From: Planctomycetota bacterium
Lineage (GTDB): Bacteria; Planctomycetota; SZUA-567; H5-PLA8
DNA: 64,000 nucleotides
Direction of reading: 5' to 3'
Assembly (NCBI GenBank): GCA_038227875.1
Contig: JBBRPR010000025.1
Coordinates: 1-64,000 of the forward strand
Of the stretch, positions 888 through 22,062 are shown piece after piece (position 1 is the stretch's first letter; every line of letters begins with the position of its first letter). The notes under the pieces were generated by a model. It did no database searches. It had not been told where the DNA came from and was given only the letters and a program-made list of their open reading frames with translations. The translations under genes and the position numbers were made by a program.

Positions 888-2393
888 TCACACCAGTGCC
901 TCCTGCCCGGCGCGCGCCGCGTCGAGCTTCAACAGCGGCACGCCCTCCACCTCCAGCTGGCGGCGCAGCGCGGCGATCTCAACCGCGCGGACGGCGCCGT
1001 CATGCTTCGCGTTGGCCTGAGCCGCGGCGATGCCGGCGGCGTGGCCGAAAGACATCGCATTGATCATCACGCGCAGCGCGCCGGCCGCTTCGTGCGACGC
1101 GGAGGCGCAGCGGCCCGCCACCAGGACGTTGCGCAGGCCCTTGGGGATCAGCGCGCGGTACGGGACGGAATAGCACGGCGTCGTGCGCAGCGGACTGCCG
1201 TCGGGCTGGCCGTCCCAGCGGCGGTCGACGTGGCTGCCGTCGCCGGCGACCGTCCGTTCCTTTCCGTCGAGGTGGCGGAAGATGATCCCGGGACCATCCG
1301 GATTGTGGATGTCGACCGGATAGACGCCCTGCGCGATCGTGTCGTGAAATTGGACGCCTTCGAGCAGCTCCATCTCCTGAACTTCGTACTCGCCCTGCAC
1401 CCGCCGCGTTTCGCGCACGCCAATCTGCGCGCCGATGTCGACGAGGTAACTCTTCTCATACCCGGCGAAGCCACGCAGATGGCCCAGCACCCAGCGCATC
1501 TGGTAGCGAGCCTCAATCTCCGCGCGCGTGAAGTCGTCGGTCTTCGAACAGACCACGCCCGGCACGCGCGTACCGGCGAACATCTGCTCGTCCTTCGTCC
1601 AGACGCTCGTCGCGCCCCACAAAAACGTCGGGTACTTTCCGCCGTTGTAGTCCATGACGTGCTGAAAGAGTTCGCGCTGGATCGAACCCATGCCCACGCC
1701 CGCCGCGTGCGCTTTTTCCGTGTCGATGCCACCGACGCGGAAGCAGAGCGTCGGGGGCTGGCACTTGCCGTCAACGCCGCCGGTGTGGGTGGGCGCCCCG
1801 GCGCGCGCGCAAAGATCCGCGTCGCCCGTTGCGTCGATGAACACCTTGGCGCGAATCGCCCCGCGCCCGGATTTGCTCTCGATGATCGCGGCTTGCATCT
1901 CGCCGCTCTCGTTGCAGACCGCATGAGCAAGCCACGCGTGGAGCATCACGCGCACGCCGCTGCCCAGCACCATGTCATCGAAGGCCAGCTTCGCCGACTC
2001 GGTGCAGATCGTGTAACAGCCCCGCCCGTCCGGCGCGTGGTTGCGCACGGCGCTCATCTTCTCCAGGCGCAGCAGCACCTCCTCAGCCAACCCGCCGATG
2101 ACTTTCACGCTGTGATCCGGCGACCAGAGCTGATGCCAGATGTTGACGTTCGCCGCGCAGGCCATGCCACCGAAGTAGCCATGCCGTTCGACGATGATCG
2201 TGCGTGCCCCGTTCCGCGCCGCCGCGGCCGCCGCCATCACGCCCGCCGGTCCGCCGCCGAAGACCGCGACATCGCATTCGGCAAGGACCGGAATCTCGCG
2301 CGCCGGTTCGAAGACCACCGAGCGGCTCGACGGCGGAATCGGCAGGAACGGCGGCAGCGGACGGGGTGCGGGCTGAGTGTTGGGGGTCTGCAT
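888..2393 (-). CDS. FAD-dependent oxidoreductase (FAD_oxidored family)
   Basis: DVAVFGGGPAG FAD motif, FIDATGDADL, GVRETRR, YSVPYRALIP...NVLVAGRC. Confidence 0.88.
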   Translation of the reverse strand: MQTPNTQPAPRPLPPFLPIPPSSRSVVFEPAREIPVLAECDVAVFGGGPAGVMAAAAAARNGARTIIVERHGYFGGMACAANVNIWHQLWSPDHSVKVIGGLAEEVLLRLEKMSAVRNHAPDGRGCYTICTESAKLAFDDMVLGSGVRVMLHAWLAHAVCNESGEMQAAIIESKSGRGAIRAKVFIDATGDADLCARAGAPTHTGGVDGKCQPPTLCFRVGGIDTEKAHAAGVGMGSIQRELFQHVMDYNGGKYPTFLWGATSVWTKDEQMFAGTRVPGVVCSKTDDFTRAEIEARYQMRWVLGHLRGFAGYEKSYLVDIGAQIGVRETRRVQGEYEVQEMELLEGVQFHDTIAQGVYPVDIHNPDGPGIIFRHLDGKERTVAGDGSHVDRRWDGQPDGSPLRTTPCYSVPYRALIPKGLRNVLVAGRCASASHEAAGALRVMINAMSFGHAAGIAAAQANAKHDGAVRAVEIAALRRQLEVEGVPLLKLDAARAGQEALV

Positions 2394-15878: not shown

Positions 15879-15917
15879 GCGACTCATTCATCATTCATAG
15901 TTCATCGTTACGAGTAA

Positions 15918-16006
15918 CGGAAGGTGTGGGGTTCGAACCCACTTGCCCCGAATGAGGGCTGGAGATTAGCAATCTCCCCCGGCGCGCCATTCTCCGGCGA
16001 CCTTCC
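15918..16006 (-). tRNA. tRNA-Ser(GCT)
   Basis: Anticodon arm GGAGA-TT GCT AA-TCTCC, long variable arm, GGTTCGAACCC, G73. Confidence 0.9.
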
Positions 16007-16022
16007 AGATTTTATCCTGCTG

Positions 16023-16050
16023 AGGACTCGGGCCACGTGGCCCGAGTCCT
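16023..16050. repeat. Perfect 28-bp palindrome in a tRNA spacer
   Basis: aggactcgggccac|gtggcccgagtcct. Confidence 0.85.
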
Positions 16051-16068
16051 ATTTCACAATATATTTTA

Positions 16069-16156
16069 CGGAGGACAGAGGACTTGAACCCCACTCCCTC
16101 TAGGGGAGCATACCGTTTTCGAGACGGTCTCGGCGCGCCTGTCCGATTTATCCTCC
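16069..16156 (-). tRNA. tRNA-Ser(CGA)
   Basis: ACCGT-CT CGA AA-ACGGT, long variable arm, GGTTCAAGTCC, G73. Confidence 0.9.
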
Positions 16157-16231
16157 AGAAATACGTCCAGTGTTCGAGGCGGCGCTGCATTCTGGATCTG
16201 CAGCGCCGCAGCTTCACGTTTCTGTTGCGAC

Positions 16232-16822
16232 CTACTCCTTCAATTCCGCATTCCAGTACGCGTCGGAGACAAACTTCTCCCAACTTGCGCGGTACGGGAT
16301 GCGTGCGAGGACCAGCTTTGGCGTCCACGTCGGCTTGCACGGCGCCTTGAAGAGCGTTACGCCAGCCTCCGCGGGCGTGCGATTGGCCTTCTTGAAATTG
16401 CACTTCACGCACGCCACCACGCAGTTGTTCCACGTCGACGTACCGCCGCGCGAACGCGGTTGAACGTGATCGATGGTCAGTTCCTGTGTGCCAGGCTTCA
16501 CGCCGCAGTACTGGCACATGTAGCGGTCGCGGCGGTAGAGATTGCTGCGCGAAAACGCCACGCCGCGGACGGGAACTTCGCCGTACTTCGCCAGCACGAT
16601 CACCTCCGGCACGGGAATTTCCAGCGTCGCTGTGCGCACGCAGCGCTCACCTTCAGCGACGCGCAGCTGCGACCAGGAATCAAAATCGTGGAGCGAGTAA
16701 TCGTCGGACTTGATTACGCGCGCCGAGCCGTCGTAGACCTTGGTGAGCGCGTTGAGCACGGTGGTGATATCCACCGGAACCCAATTGCGATTCAATACCA
16801 GAGTCGCATCTTCAAGAACCAC
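16232..16822 (-). CDS. HNH endonuclease (McrA/HNH_5-like) inside the tRNA array
   Basis: RRDRYMCQYCG...TIDHVQPRSRGG...WNNCVVACVKCNFKK; AGGAGG SD before the GTG start. Confidence 0.92.
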   Translation of the reverse strand: MVLEDATLVLNRNWVPVDITTVLNALTKVYDGSARVIKSDDYSLHDFDSWSQLRVAEGERCVRTATLEIPVPEVIVLAKYGEVPVRGVAFSRSNLYRRDRYMCQYCGVKPGTQELTIDHVQPRSRGGTSTWNNCVVACVKCNFKKANRTPAEAGVTLFKAPCKPTWTPKLVLARIPYRASWEKFVSDAYWNAELKE

Positions 16823-16941
16823 AATCCCCTCCTGAAATGTCGAAGTGCGAATGTCGATTGTCCAATCGCAAGCGCGACAATTCTCGTCCCTGGTTTACTG
16901 ACTTTACTTCACTCCCTTACCACACGTTTCGTACTTCAATT

Positions 16942-17015
16942 TGGCAGAGCGTTAGGGAGTTCAACCCCACCGCAAGGTTTTGGAGGCCTCGCAGGTCCGC
17001 CGACCGTCACGCTCT
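16942..17015 (-). tRNA. tRNA-Trp(CCA), atypical
   Basis: GAGGC-CT CCA AA-ACCTT; T-loop TTGAACT; encoded CCA. Confidence 0.8.
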
Positions 17016-17102
17016 AGCGAATGTTGAAGGATGAATGTCGAATCTCGAATTCACCCAACTCACTTCTTACTCAGTCCTCGGCCCTCAGTCCTTTCGTACA
17101 GA

Positions 17103-17183
17103 TGGAGGCGTGAGGAATCGAACCTCATCAGCCCTGACGGGCGCTCGATTTACAGTCGAGCTCGGCTCCCAGGCCACGTCTCC
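17103..17183 (-). tRNA. tRNA-Tyr(GTA)
   Basis: CTCGA-CT GTA AA-TCGAG, long variable arm, GGTTCGATTCC. Confidence 0.88.
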
Positions 17184-17203
17184 AAACTTTTCGACGTTCC
17201 AAG

Positions 17204-17275
17204 TCCGCCCGCTGGGAATCGCACCCAGACCTCGACTTCCGCAAAATCGCGTGCGGTCTGTTACACTACGGGCGA
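17204..17275 (-). tRNA. tRNA-Arg(GCG), rare anticodon
   Basis: CGATT-TT GCG GA-AGTCG; T-loop TGCGATT; acceptor TCGCCCG/CGGGCGG. Confidence 0.78.
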
Positions 17276-17309
17276 AAAACTTGCGGTCCTTTCCTTCTCG
17301 ATTGTTAAG

Positions 17310-17380
17310 TTCGCCCGCCGGGAATTGCACCCAGTCTTCGATCTCGCAAGATTCGCGTGCTATAGTTACACTACGGGCGA
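17310..17380 (-). tRNA. tRNA-like paralog of tRNA-Arg(GCG) with an ambiguous anticodon (TGC by position); possibly pseudo-tRNA
   Basis: Body nearly identical to the neighbouring Arg(GCG) gene; arm CGAAT-CTTGCGA-GATCG; no G3:U70. Confidence 0.6.
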
Positions 17381-17409
17381 AGCTCTCAGTCCTCAGTCCT
17401 GTCCATTAT

Positions 17410-17484
17410 TGGCGCTCTCGCGAGGACTTGAACCTCGATCAACCGGTTAGAAGCCGGACGCTCTATCCATTGAGCTACGTGAGC
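17410..17484 (-). tRNA. tRNA-Arg(TCT)
   Basis: TCCGG-CT TCT AA-CCGGT; D-loop AATGGATA; encoded CCA. Confidence 0.9.
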
Positions 17485-17519
17485 GCAATTCGATACTCAG
17501 TCCTCAGTCCTTCCGTTCT

Positions 17520-17594
17520 TGGCGCTCCCGCGAGGACTCAAACCCCGATTGGCCGGTTCGAAGCCGGCTGTCCTATTCATTGAACGACAGGAGC
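17520..17594 (-). tRNA. tRNA-Arg(TCG), uncommon anticodon
   Basis: GCCGG-CT TCG AA-CCGGC; encoded CCA. Confidence 0.85.
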
Positions 17595-17618
17595 AAAATT
17601 CCGTATTCCTTTCACACA

Positions 17619-17693
17619 TGCCGCGAGTGGGATTCGAACCCACATAAACCTGGGTCTGAAACAGGCGCCTATGCCATGTTCGGCTACCGCGGC
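17619..17693 (-). tRNA. tRNA-Leu(CAG) with short variable region
   Basis: CCTGT-TT CAG AC-CCAGG; variable region only TTTAT; GGTTCGAATCCC; A73. Confidence 0.82.
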
Positions 17694-17723
17694 GTAACTT
17701 CAGCATCTCCTTCTTCTTCACGA

Positions 17724-17806
17724 TCAGGGCGGGGAGAGTCGAACTCCCATGGGCTTAAACCCGGCGGTATCTCGAACCGCTGCGTATGCCTTTCCGCCAC
17801 GCCCCG
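17724..17806 (-). tRNA. tRNA-Leu(GAG)
   Basis: GCGGT-TC GAG AT-ACCGC (C33), long variable arm, A73. Confidence 0.85.
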
Positions 17807-17831
17807 TGATTTGCACTTCTTGCTTCCTCAC

Positions 17832-17913
17832 TGCTCCCGAGAGGACTCGCACCTCTACGGCCCGACGGCCAGCCAATTTTAAGTCGGCCGCGTCTGCATT
17901 CCGCCACGGAAGC
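17832..17913 (-). tRNA. tRNA-Leu(TAA)
   Basis: GCCGA-CT TAA AA-TTGGC, long variable arm, T-loop TGCGAGT. Confidence 0.87.
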
Positions 17914-17939
17914 TTCTTCCCCTCTTTCCATCACCAATT

Positions 17940-18015
17940 TGGTGGAGACAGTGGGAGTTGCACCCACCTCACCGAGTATGCAAAACTCAGTCGCCCCTAC
18001 GGTACATGTGCCCCC
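17940..18015 (-). tRNA. tRNA-Ala(TGC)
   Basis: TGAGT-TT TGC AT-ACTCG; G3:U70 in the acceptor stem; ACCA end. Confidence 0.82.
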
Positions 18016-18049
18016 AACTCAGTCCTCAGCACTCAGTCCTTTCTGTTAA

Positions 18050-18120
18050 TAGCCACTGAGGGAATCGAACCCCCACCTTCAGTATGTAAAGCTGACATCC
18101 TCCCGTTAGACGAAGCGGCC
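18050..18120 (-). tRNA. tRNA-Val(TAC)
   Basis: TCAGC-TT TAC AT-ACTGA; GGTTCGATTCC; A73. Confidence 0.85.
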
Positions 18121-18131
18121 AGGTACGGCGC

Positions 18132-18263
18132 AGGACTGAGGGCCGAGGACTGCGGACTGAGTTAACTGCGAGCGCGCTTCGCTCTTTCTCAATCACGTTC
18201 CAAATTCAAGATTTCAATGCGCGCCAGCGCGCCGCAGTTACTCAGTCCTCGGCCCTCAGTCCT
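18132..18263. repeat. Long inverted repeat built from heptamer (GACTGAG/CTCAGTC) units
   Basis: aggactgagggccgaggactg...agttaactgcgagcgcgct pairs with agcgcgccgcagttactcagtcctcggccctcagtcct. Confidence 0.8.
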
Positions 18264-18273
18264 TTCTGTAAAG

Positions 18274-18346
18274 TTGCGGGCAACGGAATCGAACCGTCAT
18301 TGCAGGCTTATGAGACCCGCCAGGCGCCCACGCCTAGCCACCCGCC
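18274..18346 (-). tRNA. tRNA-Met(CAT), initiator-like 1:72 mismatch
   Basis: CGGGT-CT CAT AA-GCCTG; G1/A72 mismatch; A73. Confidence 0.8.
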
Positions 18347-18393
18347 ATTCCTCGTTCATCACTAATCACACATCACTTCACTTCACTTCACCA

Positions 18394-18466
18394 TGGGGCC
18401 CCCGGGTTTCGAGCCCGGTTCTTCCGTGCTTCAAACGGACGCAATGACCACACCTGCTCAAGCCCC
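18394..18466 (-). tRNA. tRNA-Phe(GAA)
   Basis: TCCGT-TT GAA GC-ACGGA; T-loop CTCGAAA. Confidence 0.83.
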
Positions 18467-18485
18467 GATCCTTGCTCATCATTTC

Positions 18486-18561
18486 TGGCGCTTCCGGCCG
18501 GAGTCGCACCGGCTAATGCCACCTGGACAGGGGGGCAGCTCCACTCTTTGCCATCGGAAGC
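18486..18561 (-). tRNA. tRNA-Asp(GTC), atypical
   Basis: CCCCC-CT GTC CA-GGTGG (C37); G73 followed by CCA; T-loop TGCGACT. Confidence 0.78.
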
Positions 18562-18599
18562 GACTAAAAATTCCGTACTCGACGTTCATCCTTTCCGAG

Positions 18600-18670
18600 A
18601 GGTCACGGCGGGAATCGCACCCACATCGTTCGCTTTGCAGGCGAATGCCTAGCTTTTCGGCCACGTGACC
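18600..18670 (-). tRNA. tRNA-Cys(GCA)
   Basis: TTCGC-CT GCA AA-GCGAA; U73. Confidence 0.88.
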
Positions 18671-18707
18671 AGCCTGTCTTCGTTCTCTTCCGTGATCGGG
18701 GCGCTGG

Positions 18708-18802
18708 CAGCCCGTTGATGAAAGTCTGTTCCGCCAAATTCGTCCGTGAAGCGCCTGGCCTTAAAACGTTCGCGGCGTGGCAGAAGAATTTTCAACGGGC
18801 TG
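18708..18802. mobile_element. MITE-like element, copy 1 (~95 bp)
   Basis: TIR cagcccgttga...tcaacgggctg; interior matches the reverse complement of the copy at 20901-20998. Confidence 0.7.
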
Positions 18803-18824
18803 CGGCGCGCCCCGATCACTCCGC

Positions 18825-19688
18825 TCACTTGCCTTCAAACGCAGCGGTCTTGAAGTGCTCCTTAAAGAGGTCCGCGGCGCGTCGACCGACGGCGCGCATC
18901 GCTTCCTTGCTTTCCACGATCTCGCCCTTCGCTTCGCGGCGGACGTCTTCGATCATCGCCTCAACGACCGTGCGCGTGTCTTCCATGCCCAAGCCGGCCG
19001 GCAACTTGTCGAGCACATGCTGGAGGCGCATCGGCGTCACCCACTCGTCGGCGATCGTCTTGGCGTCCTCGAGCACCTTCAACTTCGCCGGATCCTGAAC
19101 GACCTGCGGCGTGCGGCGTTCGCTGAAGTCGTCGCGCTTGTGCTTGGCGATCACGCAGCTGCCGTCGTTCGTGCGCAGCTCAATGATCGGGCGGAGCACG
19201 ACGCCTTCCCGCTTGTGTTCGCCCATCCCGTTGCGCTGCGCCTGGACTGACGGCGCGTCGCGCTGAGCATCGATCGCTGCGAGGTCGGTCGTGATGCGTT
19301 CGAAGTGAACGACCTCAAGACCCAGTTCTCGTGCGACTTCGGCCATGTCCGGAACCGAGAGCCAGCTGTCGCCGATCTGTACGTCGAAGACGATGAACTT
19401 CAGCGACGTACCGTAGGCGTCCGACATGTTCTGACACTTGCCACCGTAGGCTTCACCAAAGACCGTGACCTCCGGATGCCCGAGCTTCTCGAAACGCGCC
19501 TTCAGCTCCGCGGCATCGAAGAGCGCCATGAACTTCGGCAGGCTCTCGCCGCCCGGGAAGAAGTCGAGCGCCGCGTTCTTCCACGCTACGTTGGCCGACG
19601 TGCCGTGAAGCTTTTCCAGCGCGTAGCATTCCTTGAACAGGAGGATGTCCTGGCAGCGGTACAGATTTTCGATGTGCATGTAACCCAC
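18825..19688 (-). CDS. ATP-dependent RNA ligase, T4 Rnl2-like, inside the tRNA array
   Basis: Nucleotidyltransferase motifs I EKLHGTS, III FGEAYG, IIIa FIVFDV, IV EGVVL, V IAKHKRDDFSE, plus an Rnl2-like C-domain (WVTPMRLQHVLDKL, MIEDVRRE); GAGGA SD. Confidence 0.85.
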   Translation of the reverse strand: MGYMHIENLYRCQDILLFKECYALEKLHGTSANVAWKNAALDFFPGGESLPKFMALFDAAELKARFEKLGHPEVTVFGEAYGGKCQNMSDAYGTSLKFIVFDVQIGDSWLSVPDMAEVARELGLEVVHFERITTDLAAIDAQRDAPSVQAQRNGMGEHKREGVVLRPIIELRTNDGSCVIAKHKRDDFSERRTPQVVQDPAKLKVLEDAKTIADEWVTPMRLQHVLDKLPAGLGMEDTRTVVEAMIEDVRREAKGEIVESKEAMRAVGRRAADLFKEHFKTAAFEGK

Positions 19689-19718
19689 GGCTTCGTCCTC
19701 CTTTTCTCTTTCCTCAAT

Positions 19719-19794
19719 TGGGGTGACCTACGGGAGTCGAACCCGTTCTTCGAGCTTCACAAACTCGCGTGCGAACCGGCACACTCAGGTCTCC
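19719..19794 (-). tRNA. tRNA-His(GTG)
   Basis: CGAGT-TT GTG AA-GCTCG; G-1:C73; encoded CCA. Confidence 0.88.
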
Positions 19795-19819
19795 AACAAA
19801 TCCTCTCATACTTCTCCGA

Positions 19820-19891
19820 TCGGACGGGGAGGAGTCGAACCTCCACCTGCTGCGTATCAGACAGTTATGCAGACCCCTACACCACCGTCCG
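19820..19891 (-). tRNA. tRNA-Ile(GAT)
   Basis: ACTGT-CT GAT AC-GCAGC; GGTTCGACTCC; A73. Confidence 0.85.
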
Positions 19892-19911
19892 TTTTTCAAC
19901 ATCGTTCCAGA

Positions 19912-19985
19912 TCAGGACGGCCGGATTCGAACCGGCGGTCTCCTGCGCCCAAGGCAGGCGCTCTACCAAGCTAAGCCACGTCCTG
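19912..19985 (-). tRNA. tRNA-Pro(TGG)
   Basis: CCTGC-CT TGG GC-GCAGG; C1:G72; canonical D and T arms. Confidence 0.93.
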
Positions 19986-20020
19986 TTTGTACGTTTCCTT
20001 TCAATCATCGCGTTCGTGAG

Positions 20021-20095
20021 TCGGGATGGCCGGATTCGAACCGGCGACCTCCTGCTTCCGACGCAGGCGCTCTGGCCAAGCTGAGCTACATCCCG
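20021..20095 (-). tRNA. tRNA-Pro(CGG)
   Basis: CCTGC-GT CGG AA-GCAGG (G32, A37); C1:G72. Confidence 0.92.
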
Positions 20096-20111
20096 GTGCC
20101 GTTTTCTGCTC

Positions 20112-20183
20112 TCGGGCGCCCAGGAGTTGAACCCGGCCGGCGAGCTTATAAGACCCGCCAGTGCCACCGGCACATCACGCCCG
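20112..20183 (-). tRNA. tRNA-Ile(TAT), rare UAU anticodon
   Basis: CGGGT-CT TAT AA-GCTCG; GGTTCAACTCC; A73. Confidence 0.8.
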
Positions 20184-20234
20184 GCGCACGCTTACTTCGT
20201 TACTCTCCGCTTCCTGACTTCTCTGCTTTCCGCA

Positions 20235-20305
20235 TTGGCCCGCGAGGTGTCGAACCTCGATTCCCGGGTTCAAAGCCCAGTGTCCTACCGTTGGACGACA
20301 GGCCA
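20235..20305 (-). tRNA. tRNA-Gln(TTG)
   Basis: CTGGG-CT TTG AA-CCCGG; U1:A72. Confidence 0.9.
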
Positions 20306-20413
20306 GGGGAATGTCGAAACCTGAATGGCGAATGTCGAATTTTTTGAATCGCGCACTCTCAATTTGTTGCCTCGTTTCTGTTCTTCGACATTCGTCATTC
20401 GAAATTACCCCGA

Positions 20414-20485
20414 TTGCCGGGCAGGGATTCGAACCCCGCTTTCCTGATTCAGAGTCAAGCGTCCTACCTGATAGACGACCCGGCA
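20414..20485 (-). tRNA. tRNA-Gln(CTG)
   Basis: CTTGA-CT CTG AA-TCAGG; U1:A72. Confidence 0.9.
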
Positions 20486-20573
20486 TTCTTTAATTCAGAA
20501 CTATGAATGATGAGTGATGAATGAACTGCTGGCTGGTCGGTCAATTCATCGTTCATCGTTCATCATTTAGACG

Positions 20574-20646
20574 TGCGTCCCGTGGGGCTCGAACCCACAC
20601 CTCTCCGCTTAAAAGGCGGCTACTCTGCCACTCGAGTTACGGACGC
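20574..20646 (-). tRNA. tRNA-Lys(TTT)
   Basis: GCCGC-CT TTT AA-GCGGA; GGTTCGAGCCC. Confidence 0.9.
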
Positions 20647-20686
20647 AAATTCGATTCATCCTTGCTCATCCTACGCTCAGTGCCCA

Positions 20687-20759
20687 TGCCCCCGGGAGGA
20701 CTTGAACCTCCACCACACGGAGTAAGAATCCGGAATGCTGCCGCTAACACCTCGGAGGC
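20687..20759 (-). tRNA. tRNA-Lys(CTT)
   Basis: CCGGA-TT CTT AC-TCCGT; GGTTCAAGTCC. Confidence 0.85.
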
Positions 20760-20804
20760 GAACTGTCGCTTTATTTCTCCTGACTTCTCTCTACCTGACC
20801 TGAA

Positions 20805-20875
20805 TGGAGCGACCGGGATTCGCACCCGAAACGCGACCGTGCGAAAGTCGAATGATCCTGTTTCACCATCGCCCC
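20805..20875 (-). tRNA. tRNA-Ala(CGC)
   Basis: CGACT-TT CGC AC-GGTCG; G3:U70; T-loop TGCGAAT. Confidence 0.87.
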
Positions 20876-20900
20876 ATCTATTTCTCAACCTGACCCATAG

Positions 20901-20998
20901 CAGCCCGTTGATAGACCCTTGTACTGCGCCGCGAAACGCCTTTACTGCCAGGCGTTTCACGGAGAATCCTGGCGGAACAAGGCTTATTCAACGGGCTG
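20901..20998. mobile_element. MITE-like element, copy 2 (~98 bp) with a 4-bp ATAG flanking duplication
   Basis: atag-cagcccgttga...tcaacgggctg-atag; homologous to copy 1 in the opposite orientation. Confidence 0.75.
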
Positions 20999-20999
20999 A

Positions 21000-21071
21000 T
21001 AGCCCCACGGGGAGTCGAACCCCGGTTTCCGGATTGAAAGCCCAGCGTCCTGACCACTAGACGATGGGGCC
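21000..21071 (-). tRNA. tRNA-Glu(TTC)
   Basis: CTGGG-CT TTC AA-TCCGG; GGCCCCATCGTCTAG 5' end. Confidence 0.92.
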
Positions 21072-21130
21072 GAAGTACTGCCGTCTTGCCCTGCCATCCC
21101 GATCGATCGTTTCTTCCACTCTTCCGCACA

Positions 21131-21201
21131 TAGCCTCACGGAGATTCGAACTCCGGCTTCCGGTTCGAGAGACCAGCGTCCTGCCGCTAGACGATGAGGC
21201 C
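21131..21201 (-). tRNA. tRNA-Glu(CTC)
   Basis: CTGGT-CT CTC GA-ACCGG. Confidence 0.9.
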
Positions 21202-21265
21202 AAACTGTGCCGACTCCTGATTTCTATTCCTCTTCCCGCTTCTCGTTTCCTAATTCCCGAACCCA

Positions 21266-21336
21266 CTGCGAAGGAGGGAATCGAACCCCCATCTCCCGCT
21301 TAACAGGCAGGCGCGCTACCATTCCGCCACTTCGCA
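21266..21336 (-). tRNA. tRNA-Asn(GTT)
   Basis: CCTGC-CT GTT AA-GCGGG; U1:A72; G73. Confidence 0.9.
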
Positions 21337-21448
21337 ATAATTGGAGTTGAGGACTGAGTGTCGTGATTCGATAGTTGCATCACTGGCACTCGTTTGAATA
21401 TCTCAGTCCCCAGGTCTCCGATACTTTCTCCCGTTTCCGTTTTCCCGA

Positions 21449-21517
21449 AGCCGCAGTCAGGAATCGAACCTGCCGAATCTCTTTACGAAAGAGACTTGTG
21501 GCCCAGCACACAGCGGC
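21449..21517 (-). tRNA. tRNA-Thr(CGT), compact D-arm
   Basis: TCTCT-TT CGT AA-AGAGA; 69 nt; GCC 5' end. Confidence 0.78.
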
Positions 21518-21559
21518 GAGCCCGCCTGTTTCGAACGCCGTTCGTGTTTCGGGCTCGAA

Positions 21560-21629
21560 AGCCGCCGTCGGGAGTCGAACCCGCAAGCCCTCTCTACCGA
21601 AGAGGACTGTGAAGCCGTCACACAGCGGC
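21560..21629 (-). tRNA. tRNA-Thr(GGT), compact D-arm
   Basis: CCTCT-TC GGT AG-AGAGG (C33); 70 nt. Confidence 0.78.
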
Positions 21630-21659
21630 AACGATCCAAATGCTACGTCCAGGCTCCAG

Positions 21660-21727
21660 AGCCGCGGGCGGGAGTCGAACCCGCTGCGCCTCTTTACAGG
21701 AGAGGCCCGTGACCCTCACACCGCGGC
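21660..21727 (-). tRNA. tRNA-Thr(TGT), compact D-arm
   Basis: CCTCT-CC TGT AA-AGAGG (C33); 68 nt. Confidence 0.78.
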
Positions 21728-21768
21728 GCGGCGCATTTCACTTCTCTTCCCTTCGAATCCGACTTCTT

Positions 21769-21842
21769 TGGAGCGGTCGGCGGGAATCGAACCCGCATCT
21801 CCAGCTTGGCACGCTAGCGCTCGTCCACTGAGCTACGTCCGC
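21769..21842 (-). tRNA. tRNA-Gly(GCC), first gene of the array
   Basis: CTAGC-GT GCC AA-GCTGG; U73 followed by CCA. Confidence 0.92.
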
Positions 21843-22024: not shown

Positions 22025-22062
22025 AAAAAAAAACCTTCCGGGGTTTCTGGCCCCGGAAGGTT
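22025..22062 (-). terminator. Intrinsic terminator (attenuator) upstream of the tRNA array
   Basis: Minus strand AACCTTCCGGGG-CCAGAAA-CCCCGGAAGG followed by 9 T. Confidence 0.9.

Follow-up and report, generated by a model that had tools for sequence, protein, structure and literature searches.

Does a spare set of tRNA genes allow its host to decode isoleucine and arginine codons without the tRNA-modifying enzymes TilS and TadA? This question is raised by a long tRNA array on contig JBBRPR010000025.1 of a Planctomycetota bacterium (assembly GCA_038227875.1), of which we analysed positions 1 to 64,000 (the window, a stretch of 64,000 nucleotides; coordinates refer to it unless another contig is named). 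The array occupies 15917–21842 on the minus strand. It includes genes for tRNA-Ile(UAU) (20112–20183), tRNA-Arg(GCG) (17203–17275 by ARAGORN, 17204–17275 by Rfam) and tRNA-Arg(UCG) (17520–17594, CCA encoded), all on the minus strand, and no gene for tRNA-Arg(ACG); ARAGORN confirmed the preliminary description of this locus on each of these points. That description had taken the three anticodons as a means of bypassing TilS and TadA, in an emergency set that would need little maturation. We consider it fairly probable that the array is a maintained spare set, in which the arginine anticodons copy those of the host and tRNA-Ile(UAU) adds a lysidine-independent reader of AUA codons.

Conservation of the tRNA-Ile(UAU) gene

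ARAGORN folded the tRNA-Ile(UAU) gene into a cloverleaf with the anticodon loop CTTATAA, the T loop TTCAACT, a C1-G72 pair and an A73 discriminator; the CCA end is not encoded. Arrays are present in 9 of the 17 genomes of the family (f1), that is, in this genome (G000) and, in related form, in eight others. In five of the nine (G000, G001, G002, G003 and G008) a gene for Ile(UAU) directly follows that for Gln(TTG). These five orthologues come from five genera, and all of them keep an intact cloverleaf and an almost unchanged anticodon loop. Compensatory changes were found at 6 of the 24 predicted pairs and the anticodon is fixed; the T loop reads TTCAACT or TTCGACT in four orthologues and TCCGACT in that of G008. 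The same-slot orthologues, the covariation and the ARAGORN cloverleaf led us to accept tRNA-Ile(UAU) as a real gene. For the arginine genes, orthologues were found in five (GCG) and six (UCG) other arrays, with compensatory changes at 4 of 22 pairs (five sequences) and 6 of 17 pairs (six sequences), respectively. Judged by these patterns, all three tRNA genes are genuine, selectively maintained members of the array.

The tRNA-Ile(UAU) gene shares C1-G72, G2-C71 and A73 with the tRNA-Ile(GAU) gene of the array (19820–19891, minus strand; ARAGORN, 54.1 bits in Rfam). Its anticodon arm is identical over 18 nt, save for C34/T34, to that of the only CAU tRNA of the array (18273–18346, minus strand; ARAGORN), which is of the Met or Ile2 type, and this identity fits an origin of tRNA-Ile(UAU) by a C-to-T change. 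One could suppose, therefore, that the UAU anticodon is a neutral C34-to-T shift in a duplicated array CAU tRNA, or a relic of a mobile ancestor, without any role of its own. A shift of this kind would be tolerated in a rarely used array. The gene is also missing from four of the nine arrays, where a pattern search found no hidden UAU tRNA beyond the ARAGORN calls; in the arrays of one genus, its slot is taken by a GNAT acetyltransferase gene. The related arrays sit in differing genomic contexts; of seven window proteins, the HNH endonuclease described below was the only one found nearby. We consider a neutral origin improbable, however, as the gene has been kept in five genera with its cloverleaf intact, compensatory changes in its stems and its anticodon unchanged. 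Beyond the anticodon arm it is unlike the array CAU tRNA (overall identity at most 64%), and its acceptor end resembles that of the array Ile(GAU).

Decoding of isoleucine codons in the host

The host encodes TilS, which scored 160.6 bits with TIGR02432 (TilS N-domain) against a cut-off of 93.6, and this model is passed in all 17 genomes of f1. We scanned five f1 genomes for CAU and UAU tRNAs, using an anticodon-loop pattern and then the T loop. The housekeeping CAU tRNAs found were the initiator, adjoining Ala(TGC) and Ile(GAT), and a GGGCCC-type gene; this genome additionally has a GCCGGC-type CAU gene on contig C112. The five genomes yielded no canonical UAU tRNA of the housekeeping set; UAU was seen in the arrays only, bar one degenerate element in G014. 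Of the anticodons contributed by the array to the host set, only UAU is clearly unusual.

The G014 element (G014:C3:1362968–1362997; locus L087, about 1487–1556, minus strand) is a stand-alone tRNA-like sequence with a UAU loop. Its CCA is encoded, its acceptor stem is imperfect, and inverted repeats of the ACGTAAAACG type flank it; the array of G014 has no Ile(UAU). The element was accepted as a tRNA by neither ARAGORN nor Rfam. Truncated 3′ halves of CAU tRNAs were also seen in G000, one Ile2-like and one initiator-like (G000:C35:83667–83696 and C108:12860–12889), and these look like attachment-site remnants of integrated elements.

A Trp in the zinc-binding domain of type-1 isoleucyl-tRNA synthetase (IleRS) excludes the UAU anticodon (Taniguchi 2013, PMC3575796), and the tilS-less Bifidobacterium and Neorickettsia employ a eukaryote-type IleRS (PMC3575796). 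As marks of a UAU-charging IleRS we took either a eukaryote-type enzyme or replacement of the zinc-domain Trp by Arg or Lys. The host IleRS (contig C16, 1118 aa) belongs to type 2: it scored 937 bits against 8c8v and 807 against 1ile, compared with 337 for 1ffy, a type-1 enzyme. Its C-terminal domain is DUF5915, and there was no match to zf-FPG_IleRS. As the enzyme is of type 2, the Trp-to-Arg adaptation of type-1 enzymes is inapplicable, and an IleRS without the zinc domain appears permissive for the charging of a UAU tRNA. In the host, AUA is ordinarily read by a CAU tRNA with the aid of TilS, and we propose that the array tRNA-Ile(UAU) most likely reads AUA without lysidine after being charged by the type-2 IleRS. 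It is plausibly a real lysidine bypass, and we infer that it would be charged with isoleucine, carry an unmodified or AUA-restricted U34 and be expressed under stress.

The arginine anticodons of the array are those of the host

Both arginine genes of the array are above the gathering score of RF00005 (29 bits), with 44.0 bits for Arg(GCG) and 49.6 bits for Arg(UCG); housekeeping tRNAs of this genome score 64–73. The body of the array Arg(GCG) is non-canonical, having a D stem of 3 bp and a G at T-loop position 55, and it is 67% identical to the housekeeping Arg(GCG) on contig C18. ARAGORN made 81 calls over the whole genome (176 contigs, assembly 88% complete), from which two intron-containing calls on C33 and C1 were discarded for want of Rfam support. 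Outside the array, it placed arginine genes with the anticodons gcg on C18, tcg on C46, ccg on C5 and cct on C2. The first two are canonical, scoring 64.1 and 67.1 bits. No Arg(ACG) was called in the array or elsewhere in this 88%-complete assembly.

With the C18 gene as query against 61 related genomes, of which the best 30 loci were read, we observed the housekeeping Arg(GCG) in all 17 f1 genomes (85–100% identical) and, outside f1, in a single genome from a sister family within the order. We then ran the TadA model NF008113 (cut-off 150 bits) on the 61 genomes. TadA exceeded the cut-off in 38 of them, all belonging to the sister families f4–f7 (38 of the 41 genomes there), and in none of the 20 genomes of the order (0/17 in f1, 0/1 in f2 and 0/2 in f3, the f2 count being the unpublished genome G017 alone). 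The best scores in f1 were 46–99 bits, mostly from RibD-sized open reading frames (ORFs). A deaminase of 192 aa on C83 was considered as a divergent TadA and rejected, as it scored 55.5 bits against the required 150 and, among the family genomes, was found only here. As a positive control, tRNA-Arg(ACG) was recovered in all five TadA-positive f4 genomes tested; in five f1 genomes the Arg(ACG) pattern gave non-tRNA matches only (one locus per genome judged by ARAGORN, the others by eye).

Since the order is without TadA, there is no TadA for the array arginine tRNAs to bypass. The housekeeping set has the same arginine anticodons, and hence the array copies the decoding scheme of its host. We conclude that the arginine anticodons of the array (GCG, UCG and UCU, with no ACG) are not a bypass and are a property of the host order. 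The host reads CGU and CGC by the housekeeping tRNA-Arg(GCG), and CGA and CGG by tRNA-Arg(UCG) together with tRNA-Arg(CCG). A tRNA with A34 would be useless in such a TadA-free host, and the array seems to have tracked the modification repertoire of its host. The bypass claim had presupposed a housekeeping set with other anticodons, and for arginine the canonical genes on C18 and C46 contradict it. The genome has tilS and CAU tRNAs, and neither tadA nor Arg(ACG) was found in it; of the proposed bypass, the arginine part falls, and the isoleucine part remains plausible with TilS present and UAU confined to the array.

A stand-alone tRNA with an AAU anticodon (Ile, A34; 66 bits) was seen in this TadA-less genome at G000:C66:25411–25485 (locus L143, 7912–7986, minus strand). 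It is situated about 300 nt downstream of the gene for a GNAT acetyltransferase, an enzyme 55% identical to the GNAT encoded just upstream of Ile(GAU) within the G006 array.

A second HNH-linked array, in G378 of family f77, provided a comparison. Among its 31 tRNA genes are Arg(acg), Arg(ccg), Arg(tct), two Met(cat) and Ile(gat); Ile(tat) is absent. TadA was above the cut-off in four of the five f77 genomes, and tRNA-like Arg(ACG) matches were found in four of the five; with the Arg(GCG) pattern nothing tRNA-like was seen by eye in f77. The arginine wobble base of long arrays thus appears, from these two cases, to follow the lineage of the host.

The wider claim, that the array is an emergency set deliberately light in modification, with anticodons selected so that neither TilS nor TadA is needed, could draw on the lack of any A34 tRNA in the array, its single CAU tRNA, its UAU gene, the matching codons in the leader described below and the odd tRNA bodies, which modification enzymes might not recognise. 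We regard it as decidedly improbable. It is refuted for arginine by a host that has no TadA and identical housekeeping anticodons. Of the 30 anticodons called in the array, 25 duplicate housekeeping ones, and the array retains tRNAs with U34 for Lys, Glu and Gln, and such tRNAs normally require wobble modification. The Arg(ACG) and the two CAU genes of G378 indicate that avoidance of modification-dependent anticodons is no general rule of long arrays, and these arrays are described as adding mostly redundancy and not new anticodons (PMC8421152).

A leader ORF and a probable attenuator precede the array

An ORF of 58 codons (22266–22090, minus strand), ending in CCC TAG, precedes the array. It includes all 20 amino acids and 44 distinct codons. 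The codon count gives ATA once, CGT once and CGA twice, in agreement with the preliminary description, which had pointed out these three codons, and AGA and AGG occur as well. Folding predicts an intrinsic terminator downstream (22025–22062, minus strand), with a 12-pair stem (22062–22032) and nine T residues. The 5′ arm of this terminator can alternatively pair with the last codon and the stop of the leader to give an antiterminator. The fold with the terminator has −30.9 kcal/mol, and the alternative hairpin, formed without the 3′ arm of the terminator, has −25.3 kcal/mol with a z of −3.9.

Equivalent ORFs of 51–66 codons head the arrays in all nine genomes (also at loci L026 and L028–L034; that of G008 was read by eye). 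All 20 amino acids occur in seven of these ORFs and 19 in the other two. The end CCC TAG is found in eight, with CTC TAG in G004, and the stop lies 56–58 nt before the T run in the eight arrays measured. It is the layout that is conserved across the nine genomes and not the peptide sequence. As a null model we drew random ORFs of 51–58 codons with the codon usage of the host. All 20 amino acids were present in 2–5% of trials (about 5% at 58 codons), ATA was present in about 10–11% (about 11% at 58 codons), and the number of distinct codons was about 30–32, compared with 34–44 in the leaders. ATA has a frequency of 2.1 per 1000 codons in the host, and it is present in all five leaders of the UAU-bearing arrays. 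The association of ATA with the UAU gene is suggestive only, since the three ATA-less leaders come from one genus and represent few independent events.

The attenuators of amino-acid operons (trp, his and thr) consist of a short ORF, an antiterminator overlapping the end of the ORF and an intrinsic terminator. The present locus has the same three parts. Unlike those leaders, it is not enriched for any single amino acid; leaders of this family sample all 20 with 34–44 distinct codons, and they would gate tRNA genes. The leader and terminator look like a classical attenuator of a pan-codon kind placed before the tRNA array, and from this position the array is probably transcribed upon ribosome stalling. 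We found no paper on leader-controlled tRNA arrays.

This arrangement would allow a sense-and-bypass circuit for an essential tRNA modification, in which the AUA codon of the leader reports a failure of TilS or tRNA-Ile2 and the array answers. Failure of TilS or tRNA-Ile2, or loss of that tRNA, would stall ribosomes at the leader AUA, the antiterminator would open the array, and the array would then supply the lysidine-independent tRNA-Ile(UAU) and restore AUA decoding. We offer this scheme tentatively and regard it as unlikely.

Composition and setting of the array

ARAGORN called 30 tRNA genes between 15917 and 21842, every one on the minus strand, and RF00005 supplied two more that were absent from its output (20805–20875 and 17310–17380). 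A probable Trp(CCA) was read by eye at about 16930–17005, where the arrays of relatives have a called Trp(cca) in the matching slot, so that the total is about 33 genes. The array also includes tRNA-Arg(UCU) (17410–17484, minus strand; ARAGORN, 64.5 bits in Rfam). An L-array has been defined as having no fewer than 20 tRNA genes, packed at 2 or more per kb (PMC4758250), and the 30 ARAGORN genes in 5.9 kb exceed both figures; the duplication of host anticodons and the presence of arrays in only part of the family are likewise those of an L-array. A housekeeping gene with the identical anticodon exists for 25 of the 30 array tRNAs, at an identity of merely 53–79%. By this divergence, we regard the array tRNAs as an old second copy of the host decoding set.

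Ordinary chromosomal genes flank the array, namely fpg, the gene for an MFS transporter, that for a type II/IV secretion ATPase, infB and nusA. Among the 20 ORFs scanned in the window we found no integrase or transposase, and none of the scanned ORFs adjoining the array was identified as a nuclease or toxin gene.

The tRNA at 17310–17380 (minus strand) is a paralogue of the array Arg(GCG), with 43.1 bits in Rfam and no ARAGORN call. It has one additional base 5′ of the anticodon, its 7-nt loop reads UGC in the Rfam register, and it has G3-C70, hence not the G3:U70 pair of Ala identity. It is probably a copy of the array Arg(GCG) that is decaying or has shifted, though it may instead be a tRNA with an odd loop. 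The other Rfam-only gene, at 20805–20875, was read by eye as Ala-CGC with a G3:U70 pair. In several array tRNAs the near-universal U at T-loop position 55 is replaced by G (GGTGCRA), also without a standard D loop; these are Arg(GCG) at 17203–17275, the paralogue at 17310–17380, Cys at 18599–18670, Ala at 17940–18013 and Leu(TAA) at 17832–17913.

Two array spacers (about 20890–21001 and 18700–18810) contain a palindromic element of about 110 nt that resembles a small dispersed repeat; copies 87–88% identical were found on three other contigs (C85:17299–17410, C13:151275–151390 and C16:61975–62081). A short motif, GGACTGAG(G), frequently doubled, was seen by eye to recur in many of the spacers between tRNA genes, for example at 17050–17095, 17395–17410, 17495–17515, 18020–18050 and 18135–18265. 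This motif could be a signal for processing, or a repeat.

Protein genes of the array

An ORF of 196 aa for an HNH endonuclease (16232–16822, minus strand; PF01844) lies in the array. Copies 48–74% identical are present in the arrays of the eight relatives, making it a conserved 3′ component, and another stands at the end of the unrelated-looking array of G378. Of 401 genomes sampled from the phylum, 325 had a member of the HNH family (E ≤ 1e-15), usually apart from tRNA genes, and this genome has a second copy at G000:C94:2277–2867. Among the 27 best HNH loci outside f1, 22 had no tRNA within about 1.5 kb, four had a single Gln(ctg) and one was the long array of G378. A search of viral contigs returned one weak partial match only.

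The second protein gene is an ORF of 287 aa of the RNA ligase family (18825–19688, minus strand; PF09414, 46.9 bits), with a weak match to Rnl2 (41 bits against a cut-off of 197). It lies between the His and Cys tRNAs in this array solely: it is missing from all eight related arrays, and no tblastn match was obtained in 10 related loci. Scanning of contigs gave four loci with relatives, in Hymenobacter and in metagenome-assembled genomes (MAGs) of Verrucomicrobiota, Eubacteriales and Myxococcota. None of these four has tRNAs nearby, and they are therefore uninformative about arrays.

The ligase gene gives some ground for viewing the array as a repair-and-replace kit, in which diverged bodies and anticodons escape tRNA-cleaving toxins or anticodon nucleases. 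The divergence of array tRNAs from their same-anticodon housekeeping counterparts would suit such a role, in Anabaena the array and the ligase RtcB are regulated together (PMC8421152), and arrays of this type have been called a putative antidefence system (PMC12803027). We hold this to be highly improbable, as the ligase is restricted to one array out of nine, its relatives stand apart from tRNAs, no gene beside the array was recognised as coding for a nuclease or toxin, and the match to the arginine anticodons of the host would be left unexplained. That the UAU gene is not an isoleucine tRNA at all, or is a mischarged or non-functional pseudogene, is scarcely credible, since its weak D arm with a mismatch and its failure to match Rfam are outweighed by the conserved cloverleaf, the six compensatory pairs, a T loop of TTCAACT or TTCGACT in four of the five orthologues, an anticodon kept in five genera, and an A73 and acceptor stem like those of the array Ile(GAU).

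Evidence against a spare array with an added AUA reader

Several observations weigh against the reading that we prefer, of a maintained spare array to which tRNA-Ile(UAU) adds a lysidine-independent AUA reader. The gene at 20112–20183 had no RF00005 match even at E ≤ 1 and so fails by Rfam, only the anticodon gives its isotype call, and its absence from four of the nine arrays has been noted. No intact CAU gene could be assigned with certainty to the Ile2 type. The assembly yielded neither Glu(UUC) nor Arg(UCU) among its housekeeping tRNAs, and the view of UAU as the sole added anticodon is for this reason partly inferential. At 88% completeness, the lack of Arg(ACG) or of a housekeeping UAU tRNA in this genome alone is not proof. 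One type-2 IleRS is reported to read the anticodon more stringently than type 1 does (PMC13752280). The type-2 IleRS domain is also class-wide (30 of 31 genomes), so that it represents a permissive background and not an adaptation to UAU. ATA occurs in one of the four leaders of UAU-less arrays as well (G004), and TadA was not found in G378 itself (93% complete).

Comparison with known systems

The array resembles that of PCC 7120 (Santamaria-Gomez et al. 2021, PMC8421152) in its dozens of supernumerary, diverged tRNAs in one operon. That array, too, mostly duplicates host anticodons and is linked to translational stress and an RNA ligase (PMC8421152), and the phyla in which such arrays occur include Verrucomicrobia and Planctomycetes (PMC8421152). 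Unlike in PCC 7120, where promoter direct repeats are the control element, control here appears to lie in a leader-peptide attenuator; the present array is moreover chromosomal, adjoins nusA and infB, and has no integrase in view. In the excerpts of PMC8421152 we found no mention of UAU, TilS, inosine or a leader, and those of the tRNA-array survey PMC4758250 gave nothing on UAU or lysidine.

A gene-encoded tRNA-Ile(UAU) for AUA is known from Mycoplasma mobile, Lactobacillus plantarum and L. casei (PMC3575796). As in the two lactobacilli, in which Ile-TAT is carried alongside tilS (PMC3575796), the UAU tRNA coexists here with tilS; in contrast to M. mobile, tilS has not been lost (present in 17 of 17 family genomes). 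The difference from all three is that the UAU tRNA stands outside the housekeeping set, in a spare array that is putatively transcribed only under certain conditions.

For arginine, the host resembles the Mollicutes, in which CGN codons are decoded without TadA: tadA was lost and ACG was replaced by GCG and UCG (Yokobori 2013, PMC3711424). TadA has been lost repeatedly in other lineages as well (Diwan and Agashe 2018, PMC6063277). In our host, likewise, no tadA was found, and Arg(ACG) is absent with GCG and UCG in the housekeeping set. Unlike the Mollicutes, these are genomes of 6–9 Mb and not those of reduced parasites, and Arg(CCG) is kept in addition.

Implications

These results correct an attractive idea: two of the three anticodons taken for a bypass are the normal arginine decoding of the host lineage. 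The order is a TadA-free lineage with genomes of 6–9 Mb. TadA being essential in E. coli, this is a further case, and one in a large free-living genome, of life without the enzyme. Comparison of the arrays of two bacterial families provides evidence that long tRNA arrays keep step with the modification repertoire of the host, with GCG where TadA is absent and ACG in a TadA-bearing family. The tRNA-Ile(UAU), which a TilS-positive host was found to carry in its spare array alone, behind a leader with the rare AUA codon, would be a case of a back-up route for an essential modification. If the sense-and-bypass scheme were true, the anticodons of the array would co-evolve with the modification enzymes of the host and with the codons of its own leader.

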